Source of the DNA: an uncultured Gammaproteobacteria bacterium
GTDB lineage: Bacteria; Pseudomonadota; Gammaproteobacteria; UBA9214
Reading direction: 5' to 3'
DNA: 64,000 bases
Assembly: GCA_963824045.1 (NCBI GenBank)
Contig: CAWGNW010000019.1
Location: 73,108 to 137,107, forward strand
Both the position numbers and the translations under genes were made by a program. Of this stretch, positions 19,276 to 56,072 are shown one piece after another (the stretch's first letter is position 1; the number at the start of each line of letters is the position of its first letter). The notes under the pieces were generated by a model. The model saw only the letters and a program-made list of their open reading frames with translations, made no database searches and had not been told where the DNA came from.

Positions 19276-19285
19276 CTGCTAAGAA

Positions 19286-40390: not shown

Positions 40391-41890
40391 CTAGCGCGGC
40401 AGCAGATTCTCCACCCAGCTCTCGCTGGCGAGACGGGTCAGTTCCAGCACGCCGTTCGGGAACAGTCCGCCCGCCAGTATCAGTGTTCCCAGCACCAGCA
40501 TGATCGCGAGTTCGCGCCTGCGCAGGTCGACGGCCTCGATCACGGCCGTGTTATGCATGGGCCCGAGGAAGGCGCGGCGAAACATGCCAAGGAACCAGGC
40601 GGCGCCCAGAATTATGCCGGCCAGGGCCGCAAGCCCCGCGCCGGTGTGGGTGTCCAGCGCGCTCAGGATCAGCAGAAACTCGGCCGGAAAACCGCTGGTC
40701 CCCGGGACCCCCATGCCGGCGAGCCCGAACAGGAAAAAGCCGGCGGAGAGCAGTGGCATCCGCTGCGCCACACCGCCGAGACTGACGACGTCTGTCGAGC
40801 CCACGCGGTGATGCAGGAAACCGGACAGCAGGAAAATTCCGCCGGCCACGATGGTGAAATTCAGCAGCTGGAACAACGCCCCCTGGATACCCTGCAGGGT
40901 GAAGGCGGAGATACCCAGCAGCACCAGCCCGACATGGCTCAGACTCGAAAAGGCCAGCATGCGGCGCAGGTTGGTCTGGCTGAGCGCCATCAGGGCGCCA
41001 TAGAGGATACCGACAACGCCCAGGCCGGCAAGCAGCCAGTGGAATTCCTGCGCCGCGGCGGGCGCCAGCGGCACCGTGAAACGGATCAGGCCGTACGCGC
41101 CCAGCTTCAGGCCGGTCATGATGGCCGCGATGGCAGCGGGTCCCTCCATCGCGACCGTCGGCAGCCAGGTATGCAACGGGAATACCGGGGCCTTGACGGC
41201 AAAGCCGAGCAGCAGGAGGAAAAAAACGGCAGTCTGCAGTTCCGCGGGCAGGGGGGCGGCAAGCAGTTCCGGATAGGAGAATACCAGCGTGTCTGTCATG
41301 GCCCCGCCGCTTGTGCCGGCGTGGTTGAAGCCCAGCAGCAGGAAGCCAAACAGCAGCGGCACGCCGCCGGTCAGCATCATCAGGGTGTACTTGACCGCGG
41401 CATAGCGGCGGTGCGGTCCGATTCCCCAGAGGCTGATCAGGAAAAAGGTCGGGACCAGCGTCAGCTCCCAGAACAGGAAGAACAGGATGGTGTCCAGCGC
41501 ACAGAAGATGCCCAGCGTTGCGCTTTCCAGAATCAGCAGCAGGCTGAAGTAGAGCCGCGGCAGGGAGCGCACGCTGGTCCACGAGGCGAGGATGACACCG
41601 ATGAACAGCAGCACGGTCAGCGGCAGAAACAGCACGGACATGCCGTCCACGCCGATCAGGTACTTGATGTTCAGGGAGGGAATCCAGGTATGCTGCTCGA
41701 CAAACTGGAAGTCGCCGGATGCATGGTCGAAGCGGACCACGATCAGCAGCGTGAATGCCAGGTCGAGCAGCGCCGTCAGCAGGGCAATCCAGCGAGCCCG
41801 GGCCGGATTCGGCGCCAGCCAGATCAGCCCGGCCCCGAGCGGCAGGGTCATGATCACCAGGCTCAGCAGCGGATATCCGGGTTCAGGCAT
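40391..41890 (-). CDS. complex I subunit M/MrpD-like antiporter-type membrane protein (fifth gene of the DAB-like operon)
   Basis: 499 aa, polytopic, with a PF00361-type pattern (...FFLFWELTLVPTFFLI..., ...VKAPVFPLHTWLP...). Confidence 0.8.
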   Translation of the reverse strand: MPEPGYPLLSLVIMTLPLGAGLIWLAPNPARARWIALLTALLDLAFTLLIVVRFDHASGDFQFVEQHTWIPSLNIKYLIGVDGMSVLFLPLTVLLFIGVILASWTSVRSLPRLYFSLLLILESATLGIFCALDTILFFLFWELTLVPTFFLISLWGIGPHRRYAAVKYTLMMLTGGVPLLFGFLLLGFNHAGTSGGAMTDTLVFSYPELLAAPLPAELQTAVFFLLLLGFAVKAPVFPLHTWLPTVAMEGPAAIAAIMTGLKLGAYGLIRFTVPLAPAAAQEFHWLLAGLGVVGILYGALMALSQTNLRRMLAFSSLSHVGLVLLGISAFTLQGIQGALFQLLNFTIVAGGIFLLSGFLHHRVGSTDVVSLGGVAQRMPLLSAGFFLFGLAGMGVPGTSGFPAEFLLILSALDTHTGAGLAALAGIILGAAWFLGMFRRAFLGPMHNTAVIEAVDLRRRELAIMLVLGTLILAGGLFPNGVLELTRLASESWVENLLPR

Positions 41891-41911
41891 AAGCCGTTTC
41901 CATTCCTGTCA

Positions 41912-43459
41912 TCATTGCGCGGCAGCGGGTATGCCGCCGTTATGCAGCGTGCCGGCGTACAACTCCGCCAGCCCGTCAAAGGAATGCCCCAGCAGGGCAA
42001 GCCAGGGCTGTGAGTAGAAGCCTGTTCCCAGCAGGACCAGTATGATCAGCCCCGCGATGACGCGTTCCCTGCGCGTCGGTGGTTCGATTTCAATAGCGGA
42101 CTCGCTCTCCGGTCGTGGCGCCAGGAAAGCCCGCTGGAAGGCCCGCAGCAGGAAGGCGGCTGCAGCGACGTTGCCGAGGGCCGCGGCAATGGTGACCATG
42201 GCGCCGAATTCCTGGATTGCGGCTTCCAGCACCAGGTGCACGGCGTCGAAGCCGGGCGTACCCGGCATGCCGATGATGGACAGTCCCGCCACCAGAAACG
42301 CGGTTCCGATGACAGGAAGATGCCCAAACAGCCCGCCGAGGCGCGGCATGATGAGGGTGCGTGTGCGACGGTATACGAAGCCCGACATGAACAGCAGCCC
42401 CGCAGTGGCGGTGCCGAAGCTGGTGGACAGCAGGATGCTGCCCTGCAGCGCGGTCTGGCTGAGGCTGAACAGGCCGATCACCAGCAGGCTGGTATGGCTG
42501 ATGACGGCAAAGGCCAGCAGCCGCCGCAGGTTGTCCTGCATCAGCGCCAGTGTCGCCGCATAAAAAATTCCGGCAAGGGCAAAGGCCGCTACCCAGACAT
42601 GCCAGCGCAAGATCGCCTCCGGCAGCAGCGGAAACACGAAGCGTACCAGCGCATACACGCCGGTCTTCAGCCCCAGCAGAAAGACGCCGGCCACGGCTAC
42701 GGTCCCGTGCTCAGCAACCAGGGGCAGCCAGCCGTGCAGGGGAAACAGCGGAATGCGAATCCCCAGACCGTAGAACAGCAGGAAAAAGATCACGCTCTGG
42801 ATTTCCAGCGGCACGGCCTGCTGCGTCAGCTCATGCAGGTCAAAACTCCATTGCCCGCCGCTGGCATTGGCGTAGTTCCAGCCCAGCATGAAGGTGCCGG
42901 CCAGCAGCAGCAACAGGCCGATGCCCATGAACTGCAGGTAGCGCCGCATGGCTGATTCATCCTGCGGGGCCTTGGCCAGGCGCAGCAACAGGTAGGCGAT
43001 CAGGCCGAGTTCCACGGCAGACAGCAGGGTAAACCACAGCAGGTCCCGGGTCACGAACATGCCCTGCAGCGTGGCCTGGATGGCGAATGCCGGGGCCAGG
43101 AAGGCGCGGGAATTCTCCAGCCGCTTCACCTTTGCGTACAGTACAACCAGCAGCGATATTATCGCCGTCAACAGTATGAACAGCACGCTCATGCCGTCCA
43201 CGGCGGCGTGGTAATCCGGAAAGAACAGCAGCGGCAGGCGTTCGGCGAGCTGCAGGGAACTGCTCGTGGCATCGAACAACCGGAACAGGTCGCCGGCAAG
43301 CAGGAGTTCCAGCAGCGCCATCCCGACGGCAGCAGGATATAGCAGTCGCCTGCCACGCAACAGCAGCAGCACGACGACCGCCGCCAGCGGCAGCAGCTGC
43401 AGGGTGGCCAGTACCGGGTAGGCTGACTGTACCGTCCAGTGAATCTCGTTCATGCCCAT
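41912..43459 (-). CDS. complex I subunit M/N-like antiporter-type membrane protein (fourth gene)
   Basis: 515 aa, polytopic. ...GIRIPLFPLHGWLP... 1-nt gap to the upstream gene. Confidence 0.8.
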   Translation of the reverse strand: MGMNEIHWTVQSAYPVLATLQLLPLAAVVVLLLLRGRRLLYPAAVGMALLELLLAGDLFRLFDATSSSLQLAERLPLLFFPDYHAAVDGMSVLFILLTAIISLLVVLYAKVKRLENSRAFLAPAFAIQATLQGMFVTRDLLWFTLLSAVELGLIAYLLLRLAKAPQDESAMRRYLQFMGIGLLLLLAGTFMLGWNYANASGGQWSFDLHELTQQAVPLEIQSVIFFLLFYGLGIRIPLFPLHGWLPLVAEHGTVAVAGVFLLGLKTGVYALVRFVFPLLPEAILRWHVWVAAFALAGIFYAATLALMQDNLRRLLAFAVISHTSLLVIGLFSLSQTALQGSILLSTSFGTATAGLLFMSGFVYRRTRTLIMPRLGGLFGHLPVIGTAFLVAGLSIIGMPGTPGFDAVHLVLEAAIQEFGAMVTIAAALGNVAAAAFLLRAFQRAFLAPRPESESAIEIEPPTRRERVIAGLIILVLLGTGFYSQPWLALLGHSFDGLAELYAGTLHNGGIPAAAQ

Positions 43460-43460
43460 G

Positions 43461-45032
43461 TCACAGGATCACGATAAAGGTGATGACGATGAGCAGGATC
43501 AGGTAGCGGGGCTCGCTCAGCAGCACATCGATCCTGGCCAGAACCGCGCCGAGCCGTTGCACCAGGGTGAAAATCCCGACATCGCCGCCTTGCAGCACCA
43601 GGTGTTCCTCGAACCAGTGCAGCAGGGCGGCGACCGTTTCCAGCAGGTGGCCGATGGCCCCGCGGCCATGGCCGATATCGCCGCTGTCGCCGACCACCCG
43701 GCCGGTCCGCCCGTGGTGGAAGGCTTCCCACTGTGCCAGCGAGGATACCGCGCTGGCCGAGCCCGGCAGGCCTACCAGCCGGTTCACCACCTGCTGATCA
43801 AATGCCTCTATGTCCTGCGCCAGCTGACGGGTCGGCCGGACCAGCAGCCAGTCCGCCAGGTTGTCCAGCCAGAAGCGTTGCAGTGCCGCGGTATACAGCC
43901 ACTTGCGGTGTTGCAGCCAGCCGGGTACAGGACGTGACGGACTGCCTTCCGTCAGATGCATCAGCGCGGGGGCGCTGAGAAACTGGTAGGCGCGCCATGC
44001 GGCGTGTGCCGCCAGGTGCCAGGCCGCGAATGTGAACCAGCCCAGACCGCAGGCCAGGAACATCAGGCCGGTTTGACCGATGGTTGCGAATATCAGGGCG
44101 CTCTTGACGTCCGTCTGCACCAGGCCGGCAAGAAATCCGTACAGTGCCGTGGCACCGCCAAGCAGCACCAGGGTCAGCATCAGCACCGGGATCTGCTGCA
44201 GCAGCGGTTCCAGTCTTATGACCAGGTAGACCCCGGCATGCACCATGAGGGCGCCGTAGAACACCGCACTGGAAGGGGTCGGTCCCTCCAGTGCCCGGGT
44301 TATCCACGGGGTGAAGGGAAGCTGCGCCGATTTGACCAGTGCCGCGAGCAGGAAGCTCGCCGCGATCAGTCCGACCTGCAGCATTTCCAGGTCATTGCCG
44401 CGGGCGAGGATGTCCGGCCATTCCACGCTGTGTATCCAGAACAGGGACAGCGACAGCGCGGTGATGAAGCCCGCGTCACCGATACGGTTGGTGACGAAGG
44501 CGCGGCCGGCATTCACGCCTGCCACCGGGCGATCCAGTGCAAACGCGATCAGCAGGCAGGAACTGACACCGGCCAGTTCCCAGCCAATGAAGGTAAGCAT
44601 GGCATTGCCGGCCAGCACGATCAGCAGCATGGCGGACATGAACAGGCACAGCAGCATGAAGAACCGCTGGAAGCCGGCTTCGCGATGCAGGTAATTGACC
44701 GAAAATCGCAGTGTCAGCAGGGAAATCAGCGCCACCAGCGTGGCAAGCGACAGCCCCAGTGCATCCAGGTTGAACGACAGCCGTATGACATAGTCACCGC
44801 TGTGCAGCCAGATGCCATGGCTGACCTGGCCGGGTACCCCCTGCTGCAGGGCGAGTACGTCGATCGCCAGCAGCAACAGCAGCGCCAGTGCCGCGGCGCT
44901 ACTGGCAAGTCCGGCGGTGAAACCTTCCCCGGACTCACCCCGGTTCCGGCCGGAAATGTACCCGAGGCCGATGCCGGCAGCCGCCAGCAGCGGCAGCGCG
45001 GGGATCAGCCAGGCGAGGCTAGTCATGGTCAC
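43461..45032 (-). CDS. dabB: NuoL/MrpA-like membrane subunit, DabB-type partner of DabA
   Basis: 523 aa. The NuoL-type N-terminus is ...LTFIGWELAGVSSCLLIAF...AFVTNRIGDAGF... Its start overlaps the DabA stop by 14 nt. Confidence 0.8.
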   Translation of the reverse strand: MTMTSLAWLIPALPLLAAAGIGLGYISGRNRGESGEGFTAGLASSAAALALLLLLAIDVLALQQGVPGQVSHGIWLHSGDYVIRLSFNLDALGLSLATLVALISLLTLRFSVNYLHREAGFQRFFMLLCLFMSAMLLIVLAGNAMLTFIGWELAGVSSCLLIAFALDRPVAGVNAGRAFVTNRIGDAGFITALSLSLFWIHSVEWPDILARGNDLEMLQVGLIAASFLLAALVKSAQLPFTPWITRALEGPTPSSAVFYGALMVHAGVYLVIRLEPLLQQIPVLMLTLVLLGGATALYGFLAGLVQTDVKSALIFATIGQTGLMFLACGLGWFTFAAWHLAAHAAWRAYQFLSAPALMHLTEGSPSRPVPGWLQHRKWLYTAALQRFWLDNLADWLLVRPTRQLAQDIEAFDQQVVNRLVGLPGSASAVSSLAQWEAFHHGRTGRVVGDSGDIGHGRGAIGHLLETVAALLHWFEEHLVLQGGDVGIFTLVQRLGAVLARIDVLLSEPRYLILLIVITFIVIL

Positions 45033-48000
45033 CCCCGGTTTCGATCAGGGCAGGCGACAACGGCCCCGTGTGTCCCCGGTACCAGTCGGATGAGCGGTTC
45101 ACCACGGGCAGCGCGGAGAGCTCGCCCTGCCAGGGGATGAAACCGCTGCCCGGCCTGAAGACATGAATGGCCGCACTGCGCGGGTCCCTGGCTGCCAGCA
45201 GCACCCAGCCGTTACCGATGAGTTCCTGCAGCGGCGGCTGACGTTCGTAGATCCGGGTGAGGACCCCGGTGCTGGCTTCGACCACGAGCTGCAGGCGCAT
45301 CGCCTCGTGGATCTCGATCATCTGCTTCGGCAGTCCCGTGCGCAGATCGGAGCCGGTGCCTTCCATGACGCCGAACAGACCCGTGACATTGTGGGTGATC
45401 TTGGTGCCGCAGCCATACTGCTCGTTGTTAACCGTGGAAAAGTAGTACTCCAGGCTGATGCCGGCACCGACCGGGCCGACGGCCAGCAGGATCTGCTCCA
45501 GGACTTCACCTTCCGGGTCCTCGGCAGGGTCGTAGGAAATCAGGAACATGCGGCGGTCGAGGAAAGCGCCCCGGGTTACGGAGCGCCGGCCGATGAGGGC
45601 GGCGGCATTGTTGGCATGACCCAGCTCCGGGCGTGCCTGGCTGAAGTCGAAGGCGCGGCCGATGATGTGGCGCAGGGCGCGTTGTGGTGTCGGGTTTGCG
45701 GGCGCGGACGCCAGCCGCCGCGCGCGCTCCTGTGCCGAGCCGGACATGGCGCTATCGAGATCCCGGCGTAGCTGCGCCAGGGCAGGTGCCTGCGACTGCG
45801 GCAGGGCTGCCGCGTCGTACCAGGTGATGGCTTCGTCGCAGGTATTGTGTTCCGCGCCAAGGAACCAGGTGTCGGACGGGATCTCGCAGCCGCGCGCCTT
45901 CAGCGCGGCGCGGACTTCCGGCCGGTTGGCCATGGCGGCGAAAACCCGCGCGTTCGGTCCGCCGTGGCGGCCGCTGCAGGCGCCGCAGTCATAGGCCGCC
46001 AGGTGCGGGTTGTTCTGGCTGCGGGAACCATGCCCCATGATCACCACCAGTGGCGCGAAGCCGGACAGCAGGCCAATGCTGCGCAGGAAACCGTGCACCT
46101 GCTCGACCTGTTCGGCCCCGGTGAAGCCGAGGCGGGGATGTTCCGGCGTGGCCGGGGTGTCGTCCTTGCTGGTAAGTGTCAGGCAGGTCGGGATTTCGGT
46201 TTCATAGCTGCGGCGCAGCCTTTCCGCCAGCCGACCCATTTGCAGGGGCGCCAGCACCTTCGCAACCAGTACCGCCAGTGTTGCCGGTGCCGCCAGCAGG
46301 ATCAGCAGGCCGGAGGCCAGCAGGTTGCGCCGGGTTTCCTGGTGCAGCAGGCCTTTCACGGCGAGGCGCCTGCGGCGCCGCGCGCTGTGCCGTGTGGCAG
46401 GCGCCGTCTGCCCGGGAGCGGCCTGCTCGCGGATTTCGTGGGACGGGGTCACCACGACCGGGCACAGCGGAGTCACCTCGCGGTCGTCCAGGCCGCGCCA
46501 GAAGATCGGTACCCCGAAGAAGCCGGCGGCGCCCAGGGTTTCGATCCGCGGATTGTGTTCTTCCAGGTGCCGGCGAAAGGCTTCCTCTCGGTCATCCATG
46601 CAGAACACCACCTGGGTCTCCGGGCGGCTGCTGCGGGTCTCCCAGCGCCCGCGCCCCTGGTTATTTACCAGGGCATTGAACAGCTGGTCGCGATAGTGGT
46701 TTTCATAGGCCTGCAGCCAGAGGAAACCCGATCGCTCCGCGTCAAGCTGGTCGAGACAGGCGAATACCCGGTGCTGGGTGGCACGATCCTGGCCGCGCAG
46801 GTCTGCACCGCACAGGCCCAGGTGCTGCGCCAGGCGAAACAGTCGCCAGCCGTGGTCATAGACGCTGAAGCCGCCGGGGCCGTGGCTGGTGACGCTGTGG
46901 TGCCAGGTGATGATCATGTGGGCGAGGTGCAGCCATTGCGCCGGGTCACTGCCGCACAGGCTGGAACAGTTGAGCAGGCGCTGGGCGAGGGTCACCAGGT
47001 ACTCCGGCAGGTGCCGGTTGTACACCATGTAGCGCACCAGGAACTCGGCGTGGTTGTGACGAAAGAACCAGCGTATGACGTCAAGGCTTGCCTCGATCAT
47101 CCACAGGCGGCGGCACAGGCGCTGCGCGAACAGGTGTTCCAGCACCAGGCGTACCGCCAGGTAGTCCGCCATGTCGACCCGTATCCGGTCGAGCCCGGCA
47201 TAGCCCGGGTGCCGTTGCCGCCACAGGAACATTCCCGACCAGCCGGGCAGTTCCAGCGCCAGGCGTTCCAGGTAGGCTTCCCATTGTTCCGCGGGCAGGC
47301 CCAGCCACTGGAGCTCGATGACGATGGTGTCCAGCGGGTCGTCCGGCAGGGCGCCGATGTCGTCCTGCCAGTCGGGTAAATCGTCGAACACCCAGGCCAG
47401 GTCCTGCATGGCGCTCTCTCGCCAGACGCTGTAAAAGCCGCGCTGCCGCTGCGGTGAAGTCCAGGCCGCAACCCCCTGGTCCAGGAAGGCACCGACATGG
47501 CGGATGAGCAGCGGTCGCATCGCGTCCATCAGGTCTTCGCCGGTCACCACCCGGAGCAGACCGGCCAGGGTCAGTTGTCCCCCGGTCTGCGTGAACAATT
47601 CATCCAGCAGGGTCCCCGCCTCGCGGTCGACCAGACGGTCCATCAGCAGCTGGCCGGTCCCGCTGTCTTCTTTTTCCGCAATGACCTGTGACAACAGCGC
47701 TTCGGCCTTTTCCGGAGGCAGGTCCAGCATTTCCTCCGGATGCAGCAGGTAGTGATCCAGTCCCAGCGCCTGCAGGCAGGCGGTCCACAGGTCGTTGATT
47801 GCGCCCGGCTCGTCGGGCTGTCCCTGTTGCCGTGCGGACTGCAGCAGCCGGGCACGACTGGCCGCGTCCACGTCCGGCTGGAACGCAGTCAGGGCAGCGC
47901 CTTCCTCGATCTGCCAGTTCAGCTGGCAGCCGGTTACCGTTCCGATCGGGTGCAGCAGCGCGGTCAGCTGGACATTGCGCCGCGTTATGGCCGTGCCGGC

Positions 48001-48318
48001 CGCGGTGGTGAACAGGACTTCCCCGGCCTGCAGGGCAGGGTCGGCGTCGAGGACCTGTTCGAGATCCGCCTGCGTAACACGTCCGTTGCGGTAGCAGTCG
48101 CGGAATTCTTCCGCCGGCAGGTAGCCGTAGGCACCGGTCACCCGGTGTGCCTGCGCGACGGCCTCGGGAAACGGCAGGTGCTGGAATCCGTGCAGGGTGT
48201 TGTGGTGTACGAAATCGCGGATAGCGGCCTGCCCGGGCAGGACGTGCTCAAAGTGTGCGATCGCCGCCCGCAGGCGCGCGTGCCTGTCCGGTAACGCTGA
48301 CTGCTGTGTGTCCGCCAT
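45019..48318 (-). CDS. dabA: DUF2309/DabA-family inorganic carbon transporter subunit (beta-carbonic-anhydrase-like)
   Basis: 1099 aa. The N-terminal ...IRDFVHHNTLHGFQHLPF... is family-typical. Putative Zn ligands lie in VVFCMDDREE and MGHGSRSQNNPHLAAYDCGACSG. Confidence 0.85.
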   Translation of the reverse strand: MADTQQSALPDRHARLRAAIAHFEHVLPGQAAIRDFVHHNTLHGFQHLPFPEAVAQAHRVTGAYGYLPAEEFRDCYRNGRVTQADLEQVLDADPALQAGEVLFTTAAGTAITRRNVQLTALLHPIGTVTGCQLNWQIEEGAALTAFQPDVDAASRARLLQSARQQGQPDEPGAINDLWTACLQALGLDHYLLHPEEMLDLPPEKAEALLSQVIAEKEDSGTGQLLMDRLVDREAGTLLDELFTQTGGQLTLAGLLRVVTGEDLMDAMRPLLIRHVGAFLDQGVAAWTSPQRQRGFYSVWRESAMQDLAWVFDDLPDWQDDIGALPDDPLDTIVIELQWLGLPAEQWEAYLERLALELPGWSGMFLWRQRHPGYAGLDRIRVDMADYLAVRLVLEHLFAQRLCRRLWMIEASLDVIRWFFRHNHAEFLVRYMVYNRHLPEYLVTLAQRLLNCSSLCGSDPAQWLHLAHMIITWHHSVTSHGPGGFSVYDHGWRLFRLAQHLGLCGADLRGQDRATQHRVFACLDQLDAERSGFLWLQAYENHYRDQLFNALVNNQGRGRWETRSSRPETQVVFCMDDREEAFRRHLEEHNPRIETLGAAGFFGVPIFWRGLDDREVTPLCPVVVTPSHEIREQAAPGQTAPATRHSARRRRRLAVKGLLHQETRRNLLASGLLILLAAPATLAVLVAKVLAPLQMGRLAERLRRSYETEIPTCLTLTSKDDTPATPEHPRLGFTGAEQVEQVHGFLRSIGLLSGFAPLVVIMGHGSRSQNNPHLAAYDCGACSGRHGGPNARVFAAMANRPEVRAALKARGCEIPSDTWFLGAEHNTCDEAITWYDAAALPQSQAPALAQLRRDLDSAMSGSAQERARRLASAPANPTPQRALRHIIGRAFDFSQARPELGHANNAAALIGRRSVTRGAFLDRRMFLISYDPAEDPEGEVLEQILLAVGPVGAGISLEYYFSTVNNEQYGCGTKITHNVTGLFGVMEGTGSDLRTGLPKQMIEIHEAMRLQLVVEASTGVLTRIYERQPPLQELIGNGWVLLAARDPRSAAIHVFRPGSGFIPWQGELSALPVVNRSSDWYRGHTGPLSPALIETGGDHD

Positions 48319-48323
48319 GCAGG

Positions 48324-49796
48324 TCAGCTCCCGGGGATGCCGCCGAGGGCGGTGCTCAACCGCGTGATGGAAACCGCCATCAGGTCAAGCACCGGCCGCG
48401 GAATGATACCCAGCAGCACGATCCCGGCGGCGAGCACGCCCGCTGCCGTCAGTTCCAGCGGCTGCAGATCCTGGATATCGCGCATGCGGCTGTGCACCGG
48501 ACCGGTAAACAGCCGGCCGATGGTGCGCACCGAGTAGGCTGCCGTAATCAGCATGCCGATGCTCACCAGCAGGATAAGCCAGCCCCAGACCTCGTAGGTG
48601 CCGATGATCGTATGCAGTTCCGCGATGAAGCCTGCCGTACCCGGAATGGCCATACCCGCAAGCAGCGCCAGCGAAGTGAAGAAGGCGAAGCGCGGCGTGA
48701 CCTGCATCAGCGAACTGTAGTCATTCACGTCGCGCGTATGGGTGCGTTCGTAAAGCAGTCCGATCAGCAGGAACAGGGCGCCTGCAACCAGACCATGCGC
48801 CAGCATTTGCATCAGTGCCCCGGTGAGACCGGCGATGTTGAGCGTTGCGATTCCCAGCAACACGATCCCCATGTGGCTGATCGAGGAATACGCGATCATT
48901 GCCTTCAGATCGGTCTGGCGCCAGGCCAGCATACCGCCGTAGATCAGGCTGAACAGGGCCAGTCCGGCAAGCAGCGGCTGCAGCGCCTGGATGGCCTCCG
49001 GCAGCAGGGTGGAGGCACGAATCAGCCCGTAGCAACCCATTTTCAGCAGGATGCCGGAGAGCAGTATGGAGATCGGGCTGGGTGCCTCGACATGCGCCAG
49101 TGGCAGCCAGCCATGCAGCGGGAAAACGGGCATCTTCACGCCGAAACCCAGCAGAAAACCGAGAAACAGCATCACCTGGGTTTGTGCCGGCAGTGACCGG
49201 GCGCCGCTCGCCATGGAGGCCATGGCGAAGGAGTGTCCGGGCGTGAGATCAAAAAGCACCAGCAGGCTGATCAGCATGAATACCGAACCGCCCATCGTGT
49301 AGAGCACGAAATTCAGCGCTGCCTGGTGGCGCCGCCGTCCGCCCCAGCCGCCGATGAGAAAGAACAGTGGTATCAGGGTCAGTTCCCAGAGCAGGTAGAA
49401 CAGGGTCCAGTCCTGGGCCATGAACACGCCGAGCATGGCGGTTTCCAGCAGCAGTACCAGGGTGAAATACCATTTGACGCGGTCGCGCATGCCGGCCGAG
49501 GCAAGAATCGCGATGAAGCACAACAGGGTAGCCAGCAGGACCAGCGGAAAGGAAATACCGTCGATGCCGAGGGAGAAGGATGTACCCAGGTGGGGATTCC
49601 ACGGGGTCTCCTCGACGAATTGCAATGCCGCGGTGCCAGTGTCAAAGAGGGTCAGCAATCCCCACGAATAGCACAGGGCTGCCGCGGCGGCGCACAGGGC
49701 GATCGTGCGTATGGCGCGCGTGAGATGTGCAGGCAGCAGCGCGATCACGAGGGCGCCGACCGCAGGCAGCAGCAATAGCGATGTCAGCAGGTGCAT
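48324..49796 (-). CDS. complex I subunit M/MrpD-like antiporter-type membrane protein (first gene of the DAB-like operon)
   Basis: 490 aa, polytopic. ...LFYLLWELTLIPLFFLI..., ...VKMPVFPLHGWLP... 5-nt gap to dabA. Confidence 0.8.
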   Translation of the reverse strand: MHLLTSLLLLPAVGALVIALLPAHLTRAIRTIALCAAAAALCYSWGLLTLFDTGTAALQFVEETPWNPHLGTSFSLGIDGISFPLVLLATLLCFIAILASAGMRDRVKWYFTLVLLLETAMLGVFMAQDWTLFYLLWELTLIPLFFLIGGWGGRRRHQAALNFVLYTMGGSVFMLISLLVLFDLTPGHSFAMASMASGARSLPAQTQVMLFLGFLLGFGVKMPVFPLHGWLPLAHVEAPSPISILLSGILLKMGCYGLIRASTLLPEAIQALQPLLAGLALFSLIYGGMLAWRQTDLKAMIAYSSISHMGIVLLGIATLNIAGLTGALMQMLAHGLVAGALFLLIGLLYERTHTRDVNDYSSLMQVTPRFAFFTSLALLAGMAIPGTAGFIAELHTIIGTYEVWGWLILLVSIGMLITAAYSVRTIGRLFTGPVHSRMRDIQDLQPLELTAAGVLAAGIVLLGIIPRPVLDLMAVSITRLSTALGGIPGS

Positions 49797-49976: not shown

Positions 49977-52900
49977 CTATGGCGACAGCAGCATCCGGAT
50001 GAGCAGGGTGATGTCCCGGGCATCGATGATGCCGTCAGGCGTGCCGAGGTCGCAGTGCGCCAGTTCCAGCGCCCGCGTGGATTCCAGTCCGAGTGCCAGG
50101 CGTATCGCGACCGTCAGGTCGCCCGCGTTGAGCTGGCCATCCGGAGTGCCGTAGGGTGCCACGTCGCCGTCTGCCAGGTTCGGCCAGCTGGCCGGGTCTT
50201 TGGGGTCGGAACCGTTTGCCACTTCCAGTCCGTCCGGCAGCAGGTCGCCGTCGCTGTCGCTCTGCGTCGGGTCGGTCGCGTAGGTGTTCACCTCCTCACC
50301 GTCATCCAGACCGTCGCCGTCGGTGTCGCTCACCCCGGGGTTGGTCCCCGTGTGTGTCGGGTCGAGGAAAATGCCCGTGTTGGTTTCCACACCGTTCGGC
50401 AGTCCGTCGTTGTCGGTGTCGGCGCAATCGGGGTCGTTGCTGTCGATCAGGGTGTCGCAGTCGTTGTCAATGTTGTCAGCGCAGGACAGTTCCGGGGTTT
50501 CGCCCGGCACGCAGACCTGGCAGTCGGGATCGGCTGCATCGGGGAGTCCGTCGCAGTCGTTGTCCTGGCCATCGCTGCAGCTGACTTCCGCAGCCGGCTC
50601 GGTCGGTGTGCAGACGGTCGGGTCACAATCGTTTGCACAACTGGTGATGGTTTCCGCACCCTCGCAGAGCTTGTCTCCGCAGCAGGCCGACATCCGCGGG
50701 GAATCGGACTTCCGGCAGAACCGGGCGGCACTGGAGTCGATACAGCGGTTGTCGCTCACGTCGATGCCGCAGTCGATGTTGTTGGTGCCGCCGGGCGCGC
50801 CGCAGCAGAACATCTTGGCTGCCGCACCGCTCTGCTTGCCGGCGCAGTCTGCCGGACAGGTCAGGCAGTTCTCGCCGTCACCGCCTTCACACAGGCCGTT
50901 GCCGCACGCCGCGCCGCTGACCTGGGCGCAATCGGACGGGCAGCTCTTGCAGTCCTCGCCCGGATCGCAGGTGTGATTGCCGTCATCACACGTAGATACC
51001 GGGGGGTTGACTGTCTGGAACTGCCGCATCATTTCGTGATCCTCGTGGTCGAGGAGGTGGCAATGCTGCGGGAAACGGCCGAGGTAGTCCTCGAAGTCCA
51101 TGATGATGCGGGCCTTCGTGTTGGCCGGGATGCGCACGATGTCCTTCCAGGTATCCGCTTCCCACGGTTCCAGCGGGATCGGCTGGCCCGTGGTCATATC
51201 GGTCTTGCCGAGGATCTGGAAGCGCACCAGGTGCACGTGCATCGGATGCATGGAGTTGGTCGGGTTCTCGAACTCCCAGATCTCGCGGGTGCCGAGGACC
51301 GGGAACTCGTACAGGTCGTCCCAGTGTTCCGCCATCACCTGGCCACCCGGACCAGTGAGTGACTGGACCAACCACTCGTTGACGGTGCGGCCCGGGTCGT
51401 TGGAGCAGGGTGCAGTCACCTTGGCCAGGCGGAAGTAGCGGGTGCCGTCCGCCGAGCTTTCCGGCATGGCGGGTACGTCGCGCAGCGTTGGCGACAGGTT
51501 CCCGGTGTAACCGGTCTGGCCGGTTACGATGAACTTCATGATGCTGGGCAGCAGCGGCGGGGTCTGCTCGTCGTTGCGCAGGATGATCTCGGTGCCTGCC
51601 GGAAAACCGGAAAAATCTATCACGACATCCATGCGCTCGGCCGGCGCCTGCAGGCCACCGAATGCCTTGCCCAGGTTAATCGGTGCGCCGAGCAGTCCAA
51701 GGTCGGTGCCGACCAGGATGAAGTCCGGGTCGTTACCCGGGTCGGTGATGTTCTCCAGCCGCAGCTTGTACTGGCGCGACTGCGAGCCGTTCAGCAGGCG
51801 GAAGCGGTACTTGCCCTGGTCGACATTGAGGTACGGCGATATTTTGCCGTTGACGACCGCGTAGTCACCCTTGAAGGCATCCTCCAGCTGGGCGTTGTAG
51901 AACAGCGAGCCGTCCGCGTTGAAGGAACGGTCCTGGATTGCCATGCCGATCTCGTACTGGCCGCTGGGCAGGCCGAAGGCATTGCCCGGACCCAGTGTGT
52001 CCTCGCTGTCGGCGATCAGGTAGAAGCCGGCCATGCCGCCGTAGACGTTAAGGCGGGTAATACCCAGCGCGTGGTCGTGGTACCAGAGCGTGGCGGCATC
52101 CTGATTGTTGGGATATTCGTAGACGTCGGTCTCGCCCGGCAGTATGTGGTACTCGGGCTGGCCGTCGACCCGGGACGGCACGTGGCCGCCGTGCAGGTGG
52201 GTCACGATGCGCTTGGACTTGCCCCAGTTGTTGGGTCCGTGTGAGCAGGTATCCACCTCCAGGAGGTTACTGCCGCGGCTGCCGCCACCGGTAGGGAGAT
52301 TATTGACGTAGGTGACCTCGATCGGCTGCCCCTTGACGGCGACGAAGGTCGATGCCGGCCAGGCGCCGTTGTAGGTCCAGACCGTGGTATCCGGCAGGCC
52401 CGGGTGGACGCTCTGGGTGGTTTGCTGGACCGAGACCGTGTACTGCGGCACACCGTCGGCACGGGTACCGGTCGGCTGCAGGATGGCCGGTATCGGCAGC
52501 GGCTCCACGAACGGTGCCAGGCCGCAGTCGGCCTGGTTGCAGTTGCCGCCGACAAAGGTGCCGCCGGCCCCTTCACAGACCAGCTTGTCGATACTGCCGG
52601 AACAGCTGTTGTCGGCATTGCAGCAGGCGCCGGACGGCTGCGGACACTGGTTCGGATCGCAGGTGCTGACACCGGTCAGGGTGGTGCCACCGCAGGTGCC
52701 CGAGCCCACCACGGTCAGCGAGCAGTCGCCGCTGGATTCACAGCAGGCCTCAACGGCGCCGGTCGGGGTGAAATCGACAAGCAGGGATGGGGGACTGCCG
52801 CCCTCGCGGCTGTCGAAGCGGCGGGTCGAGGTCGGGATAGTCTCGTCACCGATCAGGATCCAGCCGTTGTTGGTGGCGGGGTTGTCCAGCCAGCCCTGCA

Positions 52901-53420
52901 CGTCACCGGCCATGCTTGCCGAGCTCCAGCCAGGTGATGTGTTGTTGATCAGCGTGCTGCCGCTGGCCGCGCCGAAGCCGGGCATGGTGTTCCAGGTGGT
53001 GCCGCCGCCGGCTGTAGGCGCACCCTGGCCGCCGCCGCGTGTGCCACAGCCGGCCGTCCCTTCGACCCAGGCGGAGGTAACGGGGTGCAGGGTGAAGATC
53101 GAATCCACATGATTGCTGCCGCGGGTCACGGTCATGCTGAGCGTGACGCTGTTGATGACCGAGCCGGGCGGGATGGTGGACAGGTCGAATCGCATCAGGG
53201 CACGTCTGGCAGAACCGACGCCGTTATCGGTGTTGCCGGCAAAGAGCGAGTCGCAGGCGCCGGAACTGTTGTCCGGGAAATCCTGGGCCAGGGTTGTGTC
53301 GGCGGCGGGTGTGATGGTTGCTGTTGCCGACCAGCCTGTTGTGGCGGTAAAGGCCAGCAGCATGGCGGCCACGAAGCCGCCTAGCTGCGACGGGTGTTTA
53401 GCCGTCTTCTGCTGTGGCAT
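49977..53420 (-). CDS. secreted multidomain multicopper oxidase (CotA/bilirubin-oxidase-like core with N- and C-terminal extensions)
   Basis: Signal peptide. Copper motifs HLHGGH, WYHDHA, HPMHVHLV and HCHLLDHEDHEMM are present. Also Cys-rich linkers, Asp-rich thrombospondin-type-3-like repeats (DTDNDGLPNG, SDTDGDGLDDGEE, SDSDGDLLPDG) and a dockerin-like tail. Confidence 0.85.
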   Translation of the reverse strand: MPQQKTAKHPSQLGGFVAAMLLAFTATTGWSATATITPAADTTLAQDFPDNSSGACDSLFAGNTDNGVGSARRALMRFDLSTIPPGSVINSVTLSMTVTRGSNHVDSIFTLHPVTSAWVEGTAGCGTRGGGQGAPTAGGGTTWNTMPGFGAASGSTLINNTSPGWSSASMAGDVQGWLDNPATNNGWILIGDETIPTSTRRFDSREGGSPPSLLVDFTPTGAVEACCESSGDCSLTVVGSGTCGGTTLTGVSTCDPNQCPQPSGACCNADNSCSGSIDKLVCEGAGGTFVGGNCNQADCGLAPFVEPLPIPAILQPTGTRADGVPQYTVSVQQTTQSVHPGLPDTTVWTYNGAWPASTFVAVKGQPIEVTYVNNLPTGGGSRGSNLLEVDTCSHGPNNWGKSKRIVTHLHGGHVPSRVDGQPEYHILPGETDVYEYPNNQDAATLWYHDHALGITRLNVYGGMAGFYLIADSEDTLGPGNAFGLPSGQYEIGMAIQDRSFNADGSLFYNAQLEDAFKGDYAVVNGKISPYLNVDQGKYRFRLLNGSQSRQYKLRLENITDPGNDPDFILVGTDLGLLGAPINLGKAFGGLQAPAERMDVVIDFSGFPAGTEIILRNDEQTPPLLPSIMKFIVTGQTGYTGNLSPTLRDVPAMPESSADGTRYFRLAKVTAPCSNDPGRTVNEWLVQSLTGPGGQVMAEHWDDLYEFPVLGTREIWEFENPTNSMHPMHVHLVRFQILGKTDMTTGQPIPLEPWEADTWKDIVRIPANTKARIIMDFEDYLGRFPQHCHLLDHEDHEMMRQFQTVNPPVSTCDDGNHTCDPGEDCKSCPSDCAQVSGAACGNGLCEGGDGENCLTCPADCAGKQSGAAAKMFCCGAPGGTNNIDCGIDVSDNRCIDSSAARFCRKSDSPRMSACCGDKLCEGAETITSCANDCDPTVCTPTEPAAEVSCSDGQDNDCDGLPDAADPDCQVCVPGETPELSCADNIDNDCDTLIDSNDPDCADTDNDGLPNGVETNTGIFLDPTHTGTNPGVSDTDGDGLDDGEEVNTYATDPTQSDSDGDLLPDGLEVANGSDPKDPASWPNLADGDVAPYGTPDGQLNAGDLTVAIRLALGLESTRALELAHCDLGTPDGIIDARDITLLIRMLLSP

Positions 53421-53738
53421 GATTTCACATCCCCGATGTCGTTATTGTTCACCGGAACGCGTTCTGCCCGGTTCATTGTGTGTTCTTTGGGAACCAGTCT
53501 TGACCACGATTTAGACTTTGTCAAGATTCCGGCCGGTGCGGGCAGGCGCAGGGGCATGTGGTTTGTATGGGCTGCGCTGGCCGGATAGCCTCCGCCTGGC
53601 AGCGTGTCCCGTTATTGCGGGTGTCGCGGCTGGCATGGAGAAGATCAGACCGCAAGGCGGTCGAGAGACTGGCCTGGGCCACGCCGGGAGCGATTGCGAA
53701 GTAATCTTTCTTGGGTGACCGGCAGGCCGATGGTAGCG

Positions 53739-54506
53739 TTATACCCGCAACGTGCCGCTAAGTATTTGCTTCTGCAGCAGGCCGCTCAGGATTTCAGTGC
53801 CGCCCTTGAGGACGACGTCCGGTTGCGGGTGTGACATCTCGGTCGCAATGCATGTCAGCAGTTCGATTCCGGTCAGCTTCGCGCCGGTATCGATGAGTTC
53901 CAGCAGTCGCCTGGTCACGCTGTTGATCTCGAGGAAACCCAGTTCATCTTCCCGGTCGCGATACACGACCAGGCAGGTCGGCATGTCGCCCGGCTGTGTC
54001 GGCCGGTAGTCCGGCCCGATCCTGTGAACCGGGTAGCGGTAGGCCAGGTGCCAGGCCAGTGGAGACAGTACGGGGATGCCGTTTAGCAGGTCGCCGTGAG
54101 GGTCCACGGCCCTCGGGTCGGCAGGAGACTCGGCAATCGCCAGCGCCAGTTCGACCCATTCGTAGTGGGCCAGTTCAAACAGGAATGGCGGGTCAGCAGG
54201 ATTGCCGGCGTACTCGCTTTCCAGCCAGCTGAGGAATTCCCGGGGGATTTCGTGGAACAGCGGTGTCCGGGATCTGTGCCGGGAAAAATACTCGCGCACC
54301 AGGGTATGCCATGCCGTGTCATTATAGATCTGCCGCAGCACAGGAAAGGCCCCGCTGATAAAGCCTTCAACGTTGTTGTAGAACAACTCCCGGTAGATCT
54401 GCATGCGCCGGTCTTCGATGTCCTCCGGTGCGGGATTGTTTTCCGGGTCGCGTATATTCGCCGCAAAGGCGTGCTGCCTGCGGGTGAATTCAGGCATGGA
54501 TGCCAT
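53739..54506 (-). CDS. hvfC: DUF2063-family partner protein of the MNIO enzyme (HvfC-like)
   Basis: [21 protein letters not shown]...[25 protein letters not shown]... is typical of DUF2063. It overlaps the hvfB stop (alternative ATG at 54497). Confidence 0.8.
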
Positions 54507-55365
54507 GTGCGATGTCCTCTCTGTCCTGCGGGCCGCGCCACTTCGCCTGCAGTGCGGCAATCTGTCCGACTTCCGCCAGCAGTTCCGGCAGCGGCGGGAT
54601 GTTGAAGTCGCGCTCCAGCAGCGTCGGGACCACGCCGAAATGCGCATAGGCCGTTTCCAGCAGCGACCACACCGGATCGATGACCGGCGCGCCGTGTGTG
54701 TCGATCTTCAGGTCTTCGGCTTCGTCATAATGGCCGGCGATGTGGAAGTAGACGACGCGTTCAGCCGGCAGTGCCTTGAGGAAGGCATCTGCATCGTAAC
54801 GGTGATTGATGCTGTTCACGTAGATATTGTTGACATCCAGCAGCAGGTCGCAGTCGCCCTCGGTGAGCACCGCGTTGATGAAGTCGATCTCTTCCAGTTC
54901 CTTGCCCGGTGCCGCGTAGTAGGAAACATTCTCCATCGCGATGCGCCGTTCCAGTATATCCTGCACGCGGCGGATGCGGCCGGCGACATAATGCACCGCC
55001 TCTTCGGTGAACGGTATCGGCATCAGGTCATACAGGTGGCCGTCGTCGCTGCAGTAGCTGAGGTGTTCGGTGTAGCAGCGAAACTGGTGTTCATCAAGCA
55101 GGCGCTTGAGTCGGTACAGAAAGGTTTCATCCAGCGGCGCGGGGCTGCCGATCGAAAGTGACAGGCCGTGGGCTGCAAAGGGATAACGTTCGGTGAAATG
55201 GCGCAACTGCCTGGCGAGGCTGCCGCCGATGCCGATCCAGTTTTCCGGGGCAAGCTCGAAAAAATCGACAGTCTCCGGCGGGTTGTCCCGCAGCGGACCC
55301 ATCAGGGTCCGCCGCAGTCCAAGCCCTGTGCCTGACAACGGATAATTGCTGGCGGACAGGGACAT
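54490..55365 (-). CDS. hvfB: DUF692/MNIO (multinuclear non-heme iron) family RiPP-modifying enzyme (HvfB/MbnB-like)
   Basis: GLGLRR...FFELAPENW...HGLSLSIGS...TEHLSY...MENVSYY...[12 protein letters not shown]...FHIAGH are DUF692 hallmarks. Confidence 0.88.
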
Positions 55366-55377
55366 GCCGTGCGCCTG

Positions 55378-55854
55378 TTATTTACTCGCGCCGCACTTGC
55401 CTTCGCCGCACTTGCCTTCCTTCATCATCTTCATGCGGGCGCTCTGCTCATCGGCATCAATCACACCATCGCCATTGGTGTCCATCTTGCCGAACATGGT
55501 GTCATGTCCCTGCATGAATTCTTCCTTGCTGATGCTGCCATCGCCATTTGCGTCCAGCATTTTCATGCCGCATTTGCCTTCACCACACTTGCCTTCATTC
55601 TGCATTGTCTTGCCGTTGCCGCACTTGACTTCCTGCGGTGTCATTTTTCCGGTGCCATTGTTGCCTTCCTTGTCCGTCTTCATCCCGGCGCCGCACTTGC
55701 CTTCGCCCATTTCCGCTACCATGTAACCGCCGGAAAGCGTGGACATGGCAAACGGGTTTTCCGCTGCATTGGCCGGTGTGGTTGCGGCCAGCGAAGTTGC
55801 GAGGGCGGCACCGACTGCAATAGCGAGGGGCTTCAGGGTGGTTTTCTGTGACAT
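55378..55854 (-). CDS. hvfA: HvfA-like EGKCG-repeat RiPP precursor/metallophore with an embedded EF-hand pair
   Basis: ATG at 55854 follows GGAG, then a signal peptide ...TPANA/AE. Six xKCG motifs (EGKCG x5, EVKCG x1). Two EF-hand loops, DANGDGSISKEE and DTNGDGVIDADE. Met-rich. Confidence 0.8.
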   Translation of the reverse strand: MSQKTTLKPLAIAVGAALATSLAATTPANAAENPFAMSTLSGGYMVAEMGEGKCGAGMKTDKEGNNGTGKMTPQEVKCGNGKTMQNEGKCGEGKCGMKMLDANGDGSISKEEFMQGHDTMFGKMDTNGDGVIDADEQSARMKMMKEGKCGEGKCGASK

Positions 55855-56072
55855 TGTTATCTCCATCGAAGGTTGTTTGTGTTGATCGGGTATTCTGCTT
55901 GCCTGGCGATCGTTTGCCACGACCTGACTAATGTTAACCATTCCGACCCTGCCACATTCAGAAAGTTTCTGATAAGCGTTCGCATTAAGGTGGCAAACGG
56001 CGCCTGCGCAGCGGAGAGTCCCCGGTTATGGTACTGGCAGCGAACGCGTTGAAAGCAGGCAACAGTCTGTAT

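Follow-up and report, generated by a model that had tools for sequence, protein, structure and literature searches.

A compact hvfABC-type operon without doxX and its probable captophorin precursor with an inserted EF-hand pair in a gammaproteobacterium

Captophorins (oxazolins, bufferins) form a very large and recently recognised class of copper-binding RiPPs, whose chemistry remained unsettled until 2025-2026. The systems closest to the locus described here are HvfA/oxazolin of nontypeable Haemophilus influenzae (HvfB/HvfC/HvfX), fontiphorin (FonABC) and gonophorin. For HvfA and fontiphorin, 5-thiooxazole formation, signal cleavage and Cu(I) binding are established (PMC13097082, bioRxiv 10.64898/2026.06.05.730506, PMC11252979). 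Cleavage of the HvfA signal sequence was seen experimentally, and the HvfA N-region was reported to be optimal for modification (PMC11252979). Two groups identified the HvfA/oxazolin modification as 5-thiooxazole (PMC13097082; bioRxiv 10.64898/2026.06.05.730506); this reassignment of 2026 replaces the oxazolone/thioamide product that a sequence-only reading of the present locus had assumed. Those members of the family that have been characterised function in copper tolerance (PMC12452194 among other sources). The canonical hvf operon includes a DoxX gene (HvfX); DoxX is variable and probably not biosynthetic (literature including PMC12452194 and PMC11252979).

Precursors that combine an EGKCG region with two EF-hands (Buf_EGKCG|EF-hand_5|EF-hand_5 chimaeras), a second type of Buf_EGKCG/oxazolin precursor, were described bioinformatically in Microb Genom in 2025, with WP_187711723.1 as an example (PMC12452194). 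In that study the chimaera MNIOs are coloured in similarity networks, the chimaeras are predicted to start with a transmembrane helix in place of a cleaved signal, and a function in calcium homeostasis or signalling is speculated, with EfhP as an analogy. Buf_EGKCG loci as a whole number roughly 2,000. The chimaeras constitute a sizeable subfamily, documented in the literature searched from genome surveys alone; a full-text search found no experimental study of them. Since the subfamily was described in 2025, this type of EF-hand fusion is not new, and the earlier suggestion of an undescribed fusion falls under a condition that the sequence-only reading had itself named as refuting it. The locus presented here belongs to this known subfamily, is ordinary for the field and leaves the current understanding of the captophorin class unchanged.

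In the window (the whole stretch of 64,000 nucleotides that was analysed), three minus-strand genes form a tightly packed operon: a precursor gene of the hvfA type (55378..55854, 158 aa), hvfB for an MNIO (DUF692) iron enzyme (54490..55365, 291 aa), and hvfC for a partner protein of the DUF2063 + RRE type (53739..54506, 255 aa). The precursor gene and hvfB are separated by 12 nt, and hvfB and hvfC overlap by 17 nt. All three open reading frames are present in contiguous A-B-C order, as had been read from the sequence. A Shine-Dalgarno sequence GGAG (55861..55864, minus strand) lies 6 nt upstream of the precursor ATG at 55854, and the precursor gene call in a syntenic, 89%-identical relative (L001) likewise gives 158 aa. 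A scan of positions 53300-56200 found no promoter or terminator consensus sites, and no second precursor copy is present elsewhere in the window.

The proposed correspondence to the HvfA/HvfB/HvfC arrangement holds for gene order, enzyme pair and precursor type, but not for the canonical DoxX (HvfX) gene, which a tblastn search with the L001 DoxX did not find anywhere in the window. The blastn comparison with L001 shows a synteny break downstream of hvfC, where a non-homologous spacer of ~186 bp (53526..53712, no strand assigned) stands in place of ~880 bp that include doxX (hvfX) in L001. The next gene, 318 bp downstream of hvfC on the same strand, encodes a multicopper oxidase of 1147 aa (49977..53420, minus strand) with Cu-oxidase_2, Cu-oxidase_3, CBM96/DNRLRE, TSP3 and dockerin-like domains. 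This adjacency is kept in L001 only, with doxX and ~300 bp between hvfC and the oxidase gene, and a search of up to 8 kb on either side of the 27 other hvfB loci revealed no multicopper oxidase gene. It was rejected as a family trait, being shared only with the near-identical L001 among the hvfB loci examined. A functional link with the oxidase is possible.

The enzyme and its partner are assigned to the Hvf type by curated models. The hvfB product matches PF05114 (E 2.6e-105) and PDB 3BWW (E 3e-71), and scores 442 bits with the HvfB equivalog model NF003818 (cut-off 360); its second-best NCBIfam match, BufB, reaches 272 bits, below the cut-off of 310. Bufferins Buf1 (DUF2282) and Buf2, encoded with BufB/BufC, are also Sec-exported, MNIO-modified, thiooxazole-containing and copper-binding and have the same kind of partner, but the fold and motifs of their precursors differ from those of the precursor here, and the enzyme here falls below the BufB and above the HvfB cut-off. 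The hvfC product contains PF09836 and PF22106, scores 319 bits with the HvfC equivalog model NF050145 (cut-off 142) and corresponds to PME-type 1. With the precursor matches given below, the family and EF-hand profile searches that had been suggested as a check place the products of all three genes above curated cut-offs.

Among 26 HvfB sequences, residues R18, R19, H66, H101, E145, D177, N179/N180, H208, H212, D222, H224, E251 and D253 are invariant, and F254 is kept in 25. The ligand positions of iron sites 1 and 2 are putative, and we take them from the MbnB ligand pattern. Residues with a function established by mutagenesis are R15, R16, D249 and F250 of FonB, and N175, D242 and H244 of HvfB. 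These were mapped by position and through the alignment to 3BWW instead of by aligning FonB itself. On this mapping the enzyme appears to keep both dyads (RR and Asp-Phe) and the N/D/H residues of site 3, with Asp253 as the putative catalytic residue and R18/R19/F254 as putative substrate-gating residues. It would then retain the residues that gate Glu-x-Lys-Cys-Gly substrates.

The precursor starts with a predicted Sec-type signal peptide in place of a classical leader, residues 1-30 (MSQKTTLKPLAIAVGAALATSLAATTPANA; 55765..55854, minus strand), with an AxA site followed by AENPF. On inspection it has a basic n-region (K4/K8), a hydrophobic core and A-N-A at positions -3 to -1; these features are conserved across the family, so the earlier prediction of a signal peptide is backed by both inspection and conservation. 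The signal is followed by a conserved N-region, residues 31-48 (AENPFAMSTLSGGYMVAE; 55711..55764, minus strand), for which the family alignment shows complete or almost complete conservation of N33, P34, F35, G43 and Y44. The N-region motif and the signal are both shared by plain EGKCG precursors that lack EF-hands and are encoded beside the same enzymes. We suggest the N-region as a candidate HvfC recognition region.

The six Cys residues of the precursor (54, 78, 90, 95, 149 and 154) all lie in xKCG motifs, which the translation shows as GEGKCGAG, EVKCGNG and two copies of EGKCGEGKCG, in agreement with the sequence-only reading. Four of these target residues (54, 78, 90, 95) are in an N-terminal arm, residues 51-96 (55567..55704, minus strand), that is predicted to be disordered; the remaining two (149, 154) are in a C-terminal arm, residues 147-155 (GKCGEGKCG; 55390..55416, minus strand). 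One motif, that of C78, is EVKCG and not EGKCG; FonBC tolerates some motif variants poorly. The precursor scores 55.4 bits in three stretches with NF050137 (KCGExKCG_twice, HvfA-family domain; cut-off 19.5) and 48.2 bits with the HvfA equivalog model NF050188, below its cut-off of 95; judged by these scores it is a member of the HvfA family (Buf_EGKCG, the Lys-Cys group of captophorins) and not an HvfA equivalog. The Met richness noted earlier is well beyond chance, as the mature precursor contains 14 Met in 128 residues (10.9%) versus 2.16% in 15 neighbouring proteins, a five-fold enrichment (binomial P ~8e-7). Shared with the captophorins are the enzyme pair, the EGKCG(EGKCG) target, the A-B-C order, the Sec signal followed by the N-region, and the predicted catalytic and gating residues. 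In contrast to HvfA, whose 95 aa include three AEGKCGEGKCG repeats but no EF-hand, the precursor here has an inserted EF pair and the five-fold Met content, and its operon has no DoxX gene. The product is probably an exported, Cys-modified, copper-binding peptide with an EF-hand module inside.

The EF-hand module, defined from Pfam matches and AF2 models, spans residues 97-146 (55417..55566, minus strand) and consists of loop 1 (DANGDGSISKEE, residues 101-112, 55519..55554), a linker helix, loop 2 (DTNGDGVIDADE, residues 125-136, 55447..55482) and an exit helix. The two loops sit between the fourth and fifth Cys. EF-hand_5, EF-hand_1, EF-hand_6 and EF-hand_7 exceed their Pfam gathering scores on the precursor (E 5e-13 to 1e-7), with PF13202 (EF-hand_5) matching two stretches at E 5e-13. 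Both loops fit the canonical 12-residue pattern with D1, D/N3, D5, G6, a hydrophobic residue at position 8 and E12, and can be called textbook EF-hand loops. The earlier picture of a canonical pair with flanking helices is right for the loops and only in part for the rest, since the pair is compact and almost no entering helix precedes loop 1. The inter-loop linker is only 12 residues long and includes M114, H117 and M120. In AF2 models of the precursor the EF module has pLDDT ~80-89, with helices at 110-124 and 134-146, and the KCG arms have pLDDT < 50; the module is the sole part modelled as ordered.

A calmodulin-like four-helix pair was considered and rejected: the short linker forms a single inter-loop helix, and alignments to calmodulin-type chains require gaps. 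Among solved structures the nearest relative of the module is lanmodulin (PDB 6MI5, 8FNS), which aligns without gaps over loop, 12-residue linker and loop (E 4e-7 by sequence and 1e-11 by profile) and likewise forms a compact pair in which one helix connects the loops. Lanmodulin, however, has four EF-hands, Pro at position 2 of the aligned loops (DPDKDG, DPDNDG), and neither Cys nor KCG arms. Membership in its family was rejected for the precursor, which has no Pro2, two loops instead of four, and a score of 23.4 bits with the LanM model NF053806, far below the cut-off of 135. Fold searches of the AF2 models against PDB gave nothing significant (best E 0.31 for the full-length and 0.15 for the trimmed model). 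Their lists contain mostly EF-hand proteins, with a few dockerins for the trimmed model and rmsd to classical pairs of 8-10 A, and thus add nothing to the sequence profiles. A weak dockerin match to the precursor (E 0.012, below cut-off) was dismissed as a generic likeness between Ca-binding loops.

The family of EF-type precursors is large. The EF pair is present, in the same architecture, in 119 of the best 120 homologues of the precursor, and in each of the 119 it is flanked by KCG arms on both sides, with Cys after the pair, none inside it and a linker of exactly 12 residues. Loop positions 1, 5, 6 and 12 are conserved at 98-100%, position 2 is Ala in 92% of the family (Ala or Thr here), and position 9 of loop 2 is Asp in 97%. 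Cys95, Gly96 and Met97, directly before loop 1, are conserved at 96-99%, and linker residues M14, H17 and M20 at 89%, 98% and 96%; the last three reach 7%, 19% and 33% in control short-linker EF pairs without CG just upstream of loop 1, a set chosen by similarity to the query. Like the published chimaeras (PMC12452194), the precursor begins with a hydrophobic signal and has two EF-hand_5 domains as well as a short EGKCG region, which is not of the 17-mer type and is predicted to be unstructured. Its gene precedes those of an MNIO and of a DUF2063-RRE partner (PME-type 1), and the setting is again Pseudomonadota. In the published description, the EF-hands are at the C-terminus of the EGKCG domain, which is preceded by a transmembrane helix, whereas here, as in the 119 homologues, the EF pair has a further KCG module after it. 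The precursor also differs in its canonical AxA cleavage site, and the locus in lacking DoxX.

Among 15 EF-type precursors in the genome sample, hvfBC is immediately downstream of nine and ~6 kb away from one; four have no hvfBC in their flanks, and for one the contig is too short. The order precursor, MNIO, DUF2063-RRE is also found at loci L001-L005, L009, L014, L021 and L025. The orphan precursors L008, L010 and L019 lack hvfBC in the flanks (2.9-8 kb downstream) and lie in housekeeping contexts.

We consider it likely that the locus is an hvfABC-type captophorin (oxazolin-family) RiPP operon that has no doxX, has a substrate of the chimaera subfamily, and makes a copper buffer in three steps. 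In the cytoplasm, by analogy with HvfBC and FonBC, the diiron enzyme HvfB and the DUF2063-RRE protein HvfC would oxidise the six xKCG cysteines to 5-thiooxazoles with a loss of 4 Da each. The unfolded protein would then be exported by Sec and cut after Ala30, as suggested by its sequence and by HvfA. In the Ca-rich periplasm, the EF pair may bind Ca2+ and fold, so that a small structured core would carry two flexible thiooxazole arms, rich in Met, for the binding of Cu(I). Such a protein would buffer or detoxify copper, perhaps in concert with the multicopper oxidase encoded nearby. Against this assignment are the precursor score below the HvfA equivalog cut-off, the EVKCG variant and the missing doxX, as well as the transmembrane helix, not a cleaved signal, predicted for chimaeras in PMC12452194, the EF-type orphans without hvfBC nearby, the confinement of the oxidase adjacency to one lineage, and the lack of promoter or terminator consensus sites in the scanned region.

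The EF module could be more than a passively fused domain. Its folding might gather the arms, the Cys-Gly-Met motif and Met114/His117/Met120 into a Ca-gated Cu(I) site or cluster, a reading that we regard as speculative and rather unlikely. In its favour are the KCG cysteines on both sides of the EF pair and never inside it, the conserved Cys-Gly-Met, the invariant linker length, and the Met/His/Met residues that are far less conserved in the control pairs. On the other hand, M20 and F21 resemble ordinary core residues of this EF type, and some EF proteins without Cys contain His17 as well. The control pairs, moreover, were chosen for their likeness to the query, and AF2 shows no confident contacts between arms and core. 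With similar reserve we propose that the pair might act as a Ca2+-operated clamp, unfolded in the low-Ca cytoplasm, where HvfBC would reach all six cysteines and Sec would export the chain, and folded in the periplasm, where a Ca-dependent Cu(I) site would arise. If so, this would be a dual-metal RiPP protein with copper affinity tuned by calcium. Such dual Ca/Cu binding is a hypothesis here, and one raised earlier in PMC12452194. The module might also bind another metal, such as lanthanides in the manner of lanmodulin, or zinc or copper through His and Met, and serve the homeostasis of that metal. The gapless loops and equal linker shared with lanmodulin, the Asp at position 9 of loop 2, as in lanmodulin loops, and the weak NF053806 match fit this proposal. 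We nevertheless hold it to be very improbable, given the absence of Pro2, the two loops and the LanM score of 23 versus 135 bits; in addition, many unrelated bacterial proteins contain short-linker EF pairs, and the neighbouring genes examined included none related to lanthanides.

Two further explanations concern the partner of the protein rather than its metal. Instead of being a general buffer, the modified protein might deliver copper to the giant multicopper oxidase encoded next to it, as a chaperone or shuttle; the same-strand oxidase gene and its retention in L001 speak for this. This is improbable in our view: the 27 other hvfB-carrying loci have no oxidase in their flanks, doxX and ~300 bp intervene between hvfC and the oxidase gene in L001, and characterised members act in copper tolerance. 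The least probable of the readings weighed is a periplasmic protein mainly for Ca2+ binding or signalling, with KCG cysteines unmodified or in disulfides and an incidental link to hvfBC. Its model would be EfhP (PA4107) of Pseudomonas aeruginosa, which together with generic exported EF-hand_5 proteins shares export and a short-linker EF pair with the precursor but has no KCG or MNIO association and much less conserved linker Met14/His17. The orphan EF-type KCG proteins speak for it, as do Nitrosospira-type relatives with two Cys only. It is hard to reconcile with the spacing of the three genes in the canonical A-B-C order, with the KCG motifs that pass the HvfA-family model, with the gating residues that HvfB appears to keep, or with hvfBC directly after 9 of the 15 EF-type precursors.

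For the favoured captophorin reading, the locus offers a clean and compact representative for testing whether calcium binding affects maturation, export or copper binding: it has the A-B-C genes and no doxX, and its one precursor carries six target cysteines. The flanking KCG arms, the 12-residue linker, Cys-Gly-Met and Met/His/Met are concrete targets for mutagenesis. In the literature covered, we found no description of these four features, of the doxX loss or of the adjoining oxidase.

In a neighbour-joining tree of HvfB, built without bootstrap, EF-type loci fall into at least two clades and plain loci are interleaved with them. A single origin of the EF insertion was rejected on this tree, which is suggestive only. 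Around the orphan EF-type precursors L010, L019 and L020 lie genes for housekeeping or signalling, which offer no hint of function. Similar EF pairs free of Cys are widespread among bacterial proteins.

The minus-strand locus at 53739..55854 comprises three tightly coupled ORFs. The precursor gene hvfA (55378..55854, 158 aa) starts with an ATG that has GGAG 6 bases upstream. The hvfB gene (54490..55365, 291 aa) begins 12 nt after hvfA, and hvfC (53739..54506, 255 aa) overlaps hvfB by 17 nt. The sequence-only reading had placed all three ORFs correctly, and its HvfA/HvfB/HvfC-type assignment holds. The hvfB product matches the Pfam family MbnB_TglH_ChrH (E 2.6e-105) and scores above the cut-off of the NCBIfam HvfB equivalog (442 vs 360 bits); it misses the NCBIfam BufB cut-off. 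The hvfC product combines a DUF2063 domain with an NGO1945 C-domain and reaches 319 bits with the HvfC equivalog (cut-off 142). The precursor, present in one copy in the window, passes the NCBIfam HvfA-family KCG domain model (55.4 bits vs a cut-off of 19.5) and misses the cut-off of the full-length HvfA equivalog (48 vs 95 bits).

The hvfA product has MSQKTTLKPLAIAVGAALATSLAATTPANA / AENPFAMSTLSGGYMVAE at its N-terminus and then four xKCG motifs (Cys 54, 78, 90 and 95). The signal and N-region are common to plain EGKCG precursors, which carry no EF-hands. Next come EF loop 1 (DANGDGSISKEE, residues 101-112), a 12-residue linker (FMQGHDTMFGKM) and EF loop 2 (DTNGDGVIDADE, residues 125-136). 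The C-terminal part consists of a helix and EGKCGEGKCG (Cys 149 and 154). The mature precursor contains 10.9% Met, compared with 2.16% in 15 neighbouring proteins (P about 8e-7); this five-fold enrichment bears out the unusual Met richness noted earlier. Four Pfam EF-hand models score above their gathering scores on the precursor, so the EF-hands pass the profile check proposed with the sequence-only reading. That reading had called the pair canonical, which is right for the loops and not for the pair as a whole, since the latter is not calmodulin-like. Among solved structures, lanmodulin comes closest (E 4e-7 by sequence, 1e-11 by family profile). It aligns with the EF module without gaps from loop 1 through the linker to loop 2; calmodulin-type chains require gaps. 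The module is not a lanmodulin itself: it has two loops, lacks Pro at position 2 and scores 23 bits versus 135 with the LanM model.

In AF2 models the confident region is limited to about residues 96-146 (pLDDT about 80-89), with a very short helix ahead of loop 1, one inter-loop helix and one exit helix. The two KCG arms come out disordered, so that the predicted protein is an ordered EF core between disordered arms. Foldseek found no significant PDB fold match to the models (best E 0.31 and 0.15); its lists contain mostly EF-hand proteins.

The precursor has 2,689 matches at E <= 1e-3 among 90%-identity clusters, and two EF loops are found in 119 of the best 120. In these 119 best homologues, Cys residues occur both before (median 3) and after (median 2) the EF pair and never within it (119/119), and the two loops are always separated by exactly 12 residues (119/119). 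Loop positions 1, 5, 6 and 12 are 98-100% conserved, as is, at 96-99%, a Cys-Gly-Met triplet ending three residues ahead of loop 1. The linker has Phe13 (99%), Met14 (89%), His17 (98%), Met20 (96%) and Phe21 (100%). For comparison we used 51 short-linker EF pairs from the fetched loci that have no CG directly upstream of loop 1. The frequencies of Met14, His17 and Met20 in these pairs are 7%, 19% and 33%, a contrast weakened by the choice of the pairs by similarity to the query. By this comparison, Met14 and His17 appear particular to the family, and Met20 and Phe21 resemble generic core residues.

The fusion of EF-hands to a KCG precursor, taken as novel in the sequence-only reading, had already been described, an outcome that this reading had itself listed as refuting its claim. 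A 2025 survey of MNIO systems (PMC12452194) gathers about 2,000 proteins with a Buf_EGKCG/oxazolin profile and distinguishes two precursor types. The second type, named Buf_EGKC(G)|EF-hand_5 chimaeras (e.g. WP_187711723.1), combines a short unstructured EGKCG domain with two fused EF-hand_5 domains; a role in Ca homeostasis or signalling besides copper was proposed. The locus therefore belongs to a known, bioinformatically described subfamily. Unlike the published chimaeras, in which the EF-hands are placed at the C-terminus, the window precursor and its 119 homologues have KCG cysteines after the EF pair as well. No description of a C-terminal KCG arm, a fixed linker or conserved CGM and linker residues was found in the MNIO literature consulted, and full-text searches turned up no laboratory studies of the chimaeras. 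The oxazolone/thioamide product assumed earlier follows the initial HvfA/oxazolin assignment (PMC11252979), which has been superseded: two groups reassigned the modification to 5-thiooxazole (PMC13097082; bioRxiv 10.64898/2026.06.05.730506), and a preprint of July 2026 presents HvfB as a mixed-valent diiron enzyme forming thiooxazole. The observation is confirmed and its interpretation is partly supported. The operon offers a compact test case for the chimaera subfamily, and the family-wide regularities (KCG arms, 12-residue linker, conserved residues) suggest specific experiments.

The closest solved relative of the hvfB product is the DUF692 protein of Histophilus somni (3BWW, E 3e-71), regarded in the literature as a close HvfB homologue. 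An alignment of the window's HvfB with 25 HvfB sequences of related loci shows no variation at the putative iron-site residues, at Asp253 or in the Arg18-Arg19 dyad; Phe254 is shared by 25 of the 26 sequences. These positions correspond to residues that matter in mutagenesis of FonB (R15, R16, D249, F250) and HvfB (N175, D242, H244). The alignment shows conservation of the predicted catalytic and substrate-gating residues.

In the cytoplasm, by analogy with characterised homologues, HvfB and HvfC would convert each KCG Cys to 5-thiooxazole (-4 Da). The Sec signal of the precursor would be cut off, as observed for HvfA (PMC11252979), and the modified product would bind several Cu(I) ions and protect against copper. 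The Met enrichment, the conserved Cys-Gly-Met and the Met/His/Met of the linker would fit a Cu(I)-handling role. We propose that at cytoplasmic Ca levels the EF pair is metal-free and unfolded, which would suit enzyme access and Sec export, and that it folds upon Ca2+ binding in the periplasm. That Ca binding also shapes the copper site of the precursor seems unlikely.

A scan of 185,579 species-representative genomes found EF-type precursors, i.e. those with an EF-hand pair, in uncultured Gammaproteobacteria (labels include Ectothiorhodospiraceae and Thiogranum), in Betaproteobacteria (Thiobacillus, Thiobacillaceae, Nitrosospira) and in Lysobacterales. Linkage to hvfBC was considered for a sample of 15 of them outside the window. 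The hvfBC genes lie directly downstream in nine loci (L001-L005, L009, L014, L021, L025) and about 6 kb away in L007. They are absent from the full 8 kb flanks on each side in L010, L012, L019 and L020, and from the 2.9 kb downstream in L008; L006 offers about 1 kb of downstream sequence before its contig stops, too little to judge. The genes around the precursors of L010, L019 and L020 are housekeeping or signalling. In an HvfB neighbour-joining tree (no bootstrap), EF-type loci form at least two clades, and plain-EGKCG loci are interspersed among them, a hint that the EF module was gained or lost repeatedly.

Several variants were observed. The plain EGKCG precursor of L057 (4172..4529), whose HvfB lies inside an EF-type clade, ends with ...CGGNKKMMDEDAAGKEGN, possibly what is left of CGMKMMDADGDG and hence of a lost EF module. 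The Lysobacterales precursors L021 and L025 (match at 8001..8400), adjacent to hvfBC, have the order KCG / EF / EF / KCG with 15 residues between the loops; their N-region also differs, and they constitute a second architectural variant of the chimaera. EF-pair proteins of L012 (8001..8444) and L020 (8001..8507, Nitrosospira sp. Nsp1) share the signal and NPF N-region of EF-type precursors and have only two Cys, in GRCGM ahead of loop 1 and after the linker His. They may be an offshoot, present in a cultured organism, that has degenerated or functions independently. The HvfA-type precursor of L027 (8001..8480), adjoining hvfBC, contains instead of EF-hands an insert of about 50 residues, nearly all Met, Glu and Asp (MMMMMGMDEMENMEMGESEMAKMEDMMDEMDMMEEMDGMMMM). 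The plain EGKCG precursor of L013 (8001..9186) has ten Cys and is followed by doxX, with neither hvfB nor hvfC within 8 kb. The L005 and L026 MAGs are labelled 'uncultured Halobacteria archaeon', yet carry proteobacterial-type hvfABC-doxX loci with HvfB 77-84% identical to that of the window; the label is probably a binning or labelling error.

The locus on the syntenic metagenomic contig L001 (precursor 89% identical) has the order rnf operon, nth, hvfA, hvfB, hvfC, doxX, multicopper oxidase and an inorganic-carbon uptake cluster (DabA and a Proton_antipo_M subunit). The window keeps this order except for doxX (hvfX), which is encoded nowhere in it: the stretch that in L001 spans about 880 bp and includes doxX is here about 186 bp of unrelated sequence (53526..53712). 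The multicopper oxidase (49977..53420, minus strand, 1147 aa) lies 318 bp downstream of hvfC, an arrangement conserved in L001. Its domain build is unusual, with a CBM96/DNRLRE N-domain, a PhsA/CueO-like core, acidic double-disulfide repeats, TSP3 repeats and a dockerin-like C-terminus. No multicopper oxidase was found in the flanks (up to 8 kb per side) of the 27 other hvfB-carrying loci; its putative link to hvf is therefore specific to the window/L001 lineage.

A 1099-aa DabA and several Proton_antipo_M subunits (40391..49796, minus strand; DAB-type inorganic carbon uptake or Mrp-like) are adjoined by the rnf operon and nth, which suggests a chemolithoautotrophic gammaproteobacterial host. 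The window contains no tRNA genes. A low-GC island at about 16000..24000 (47-53% vs about 62% elsewhere), with a CorA gene (15654..16601) spanning its low-coordinate edge, may have been horizontally acquired; it encodes OmdA/DUF1905, DUF4304 and GDSL-lipase proteins.
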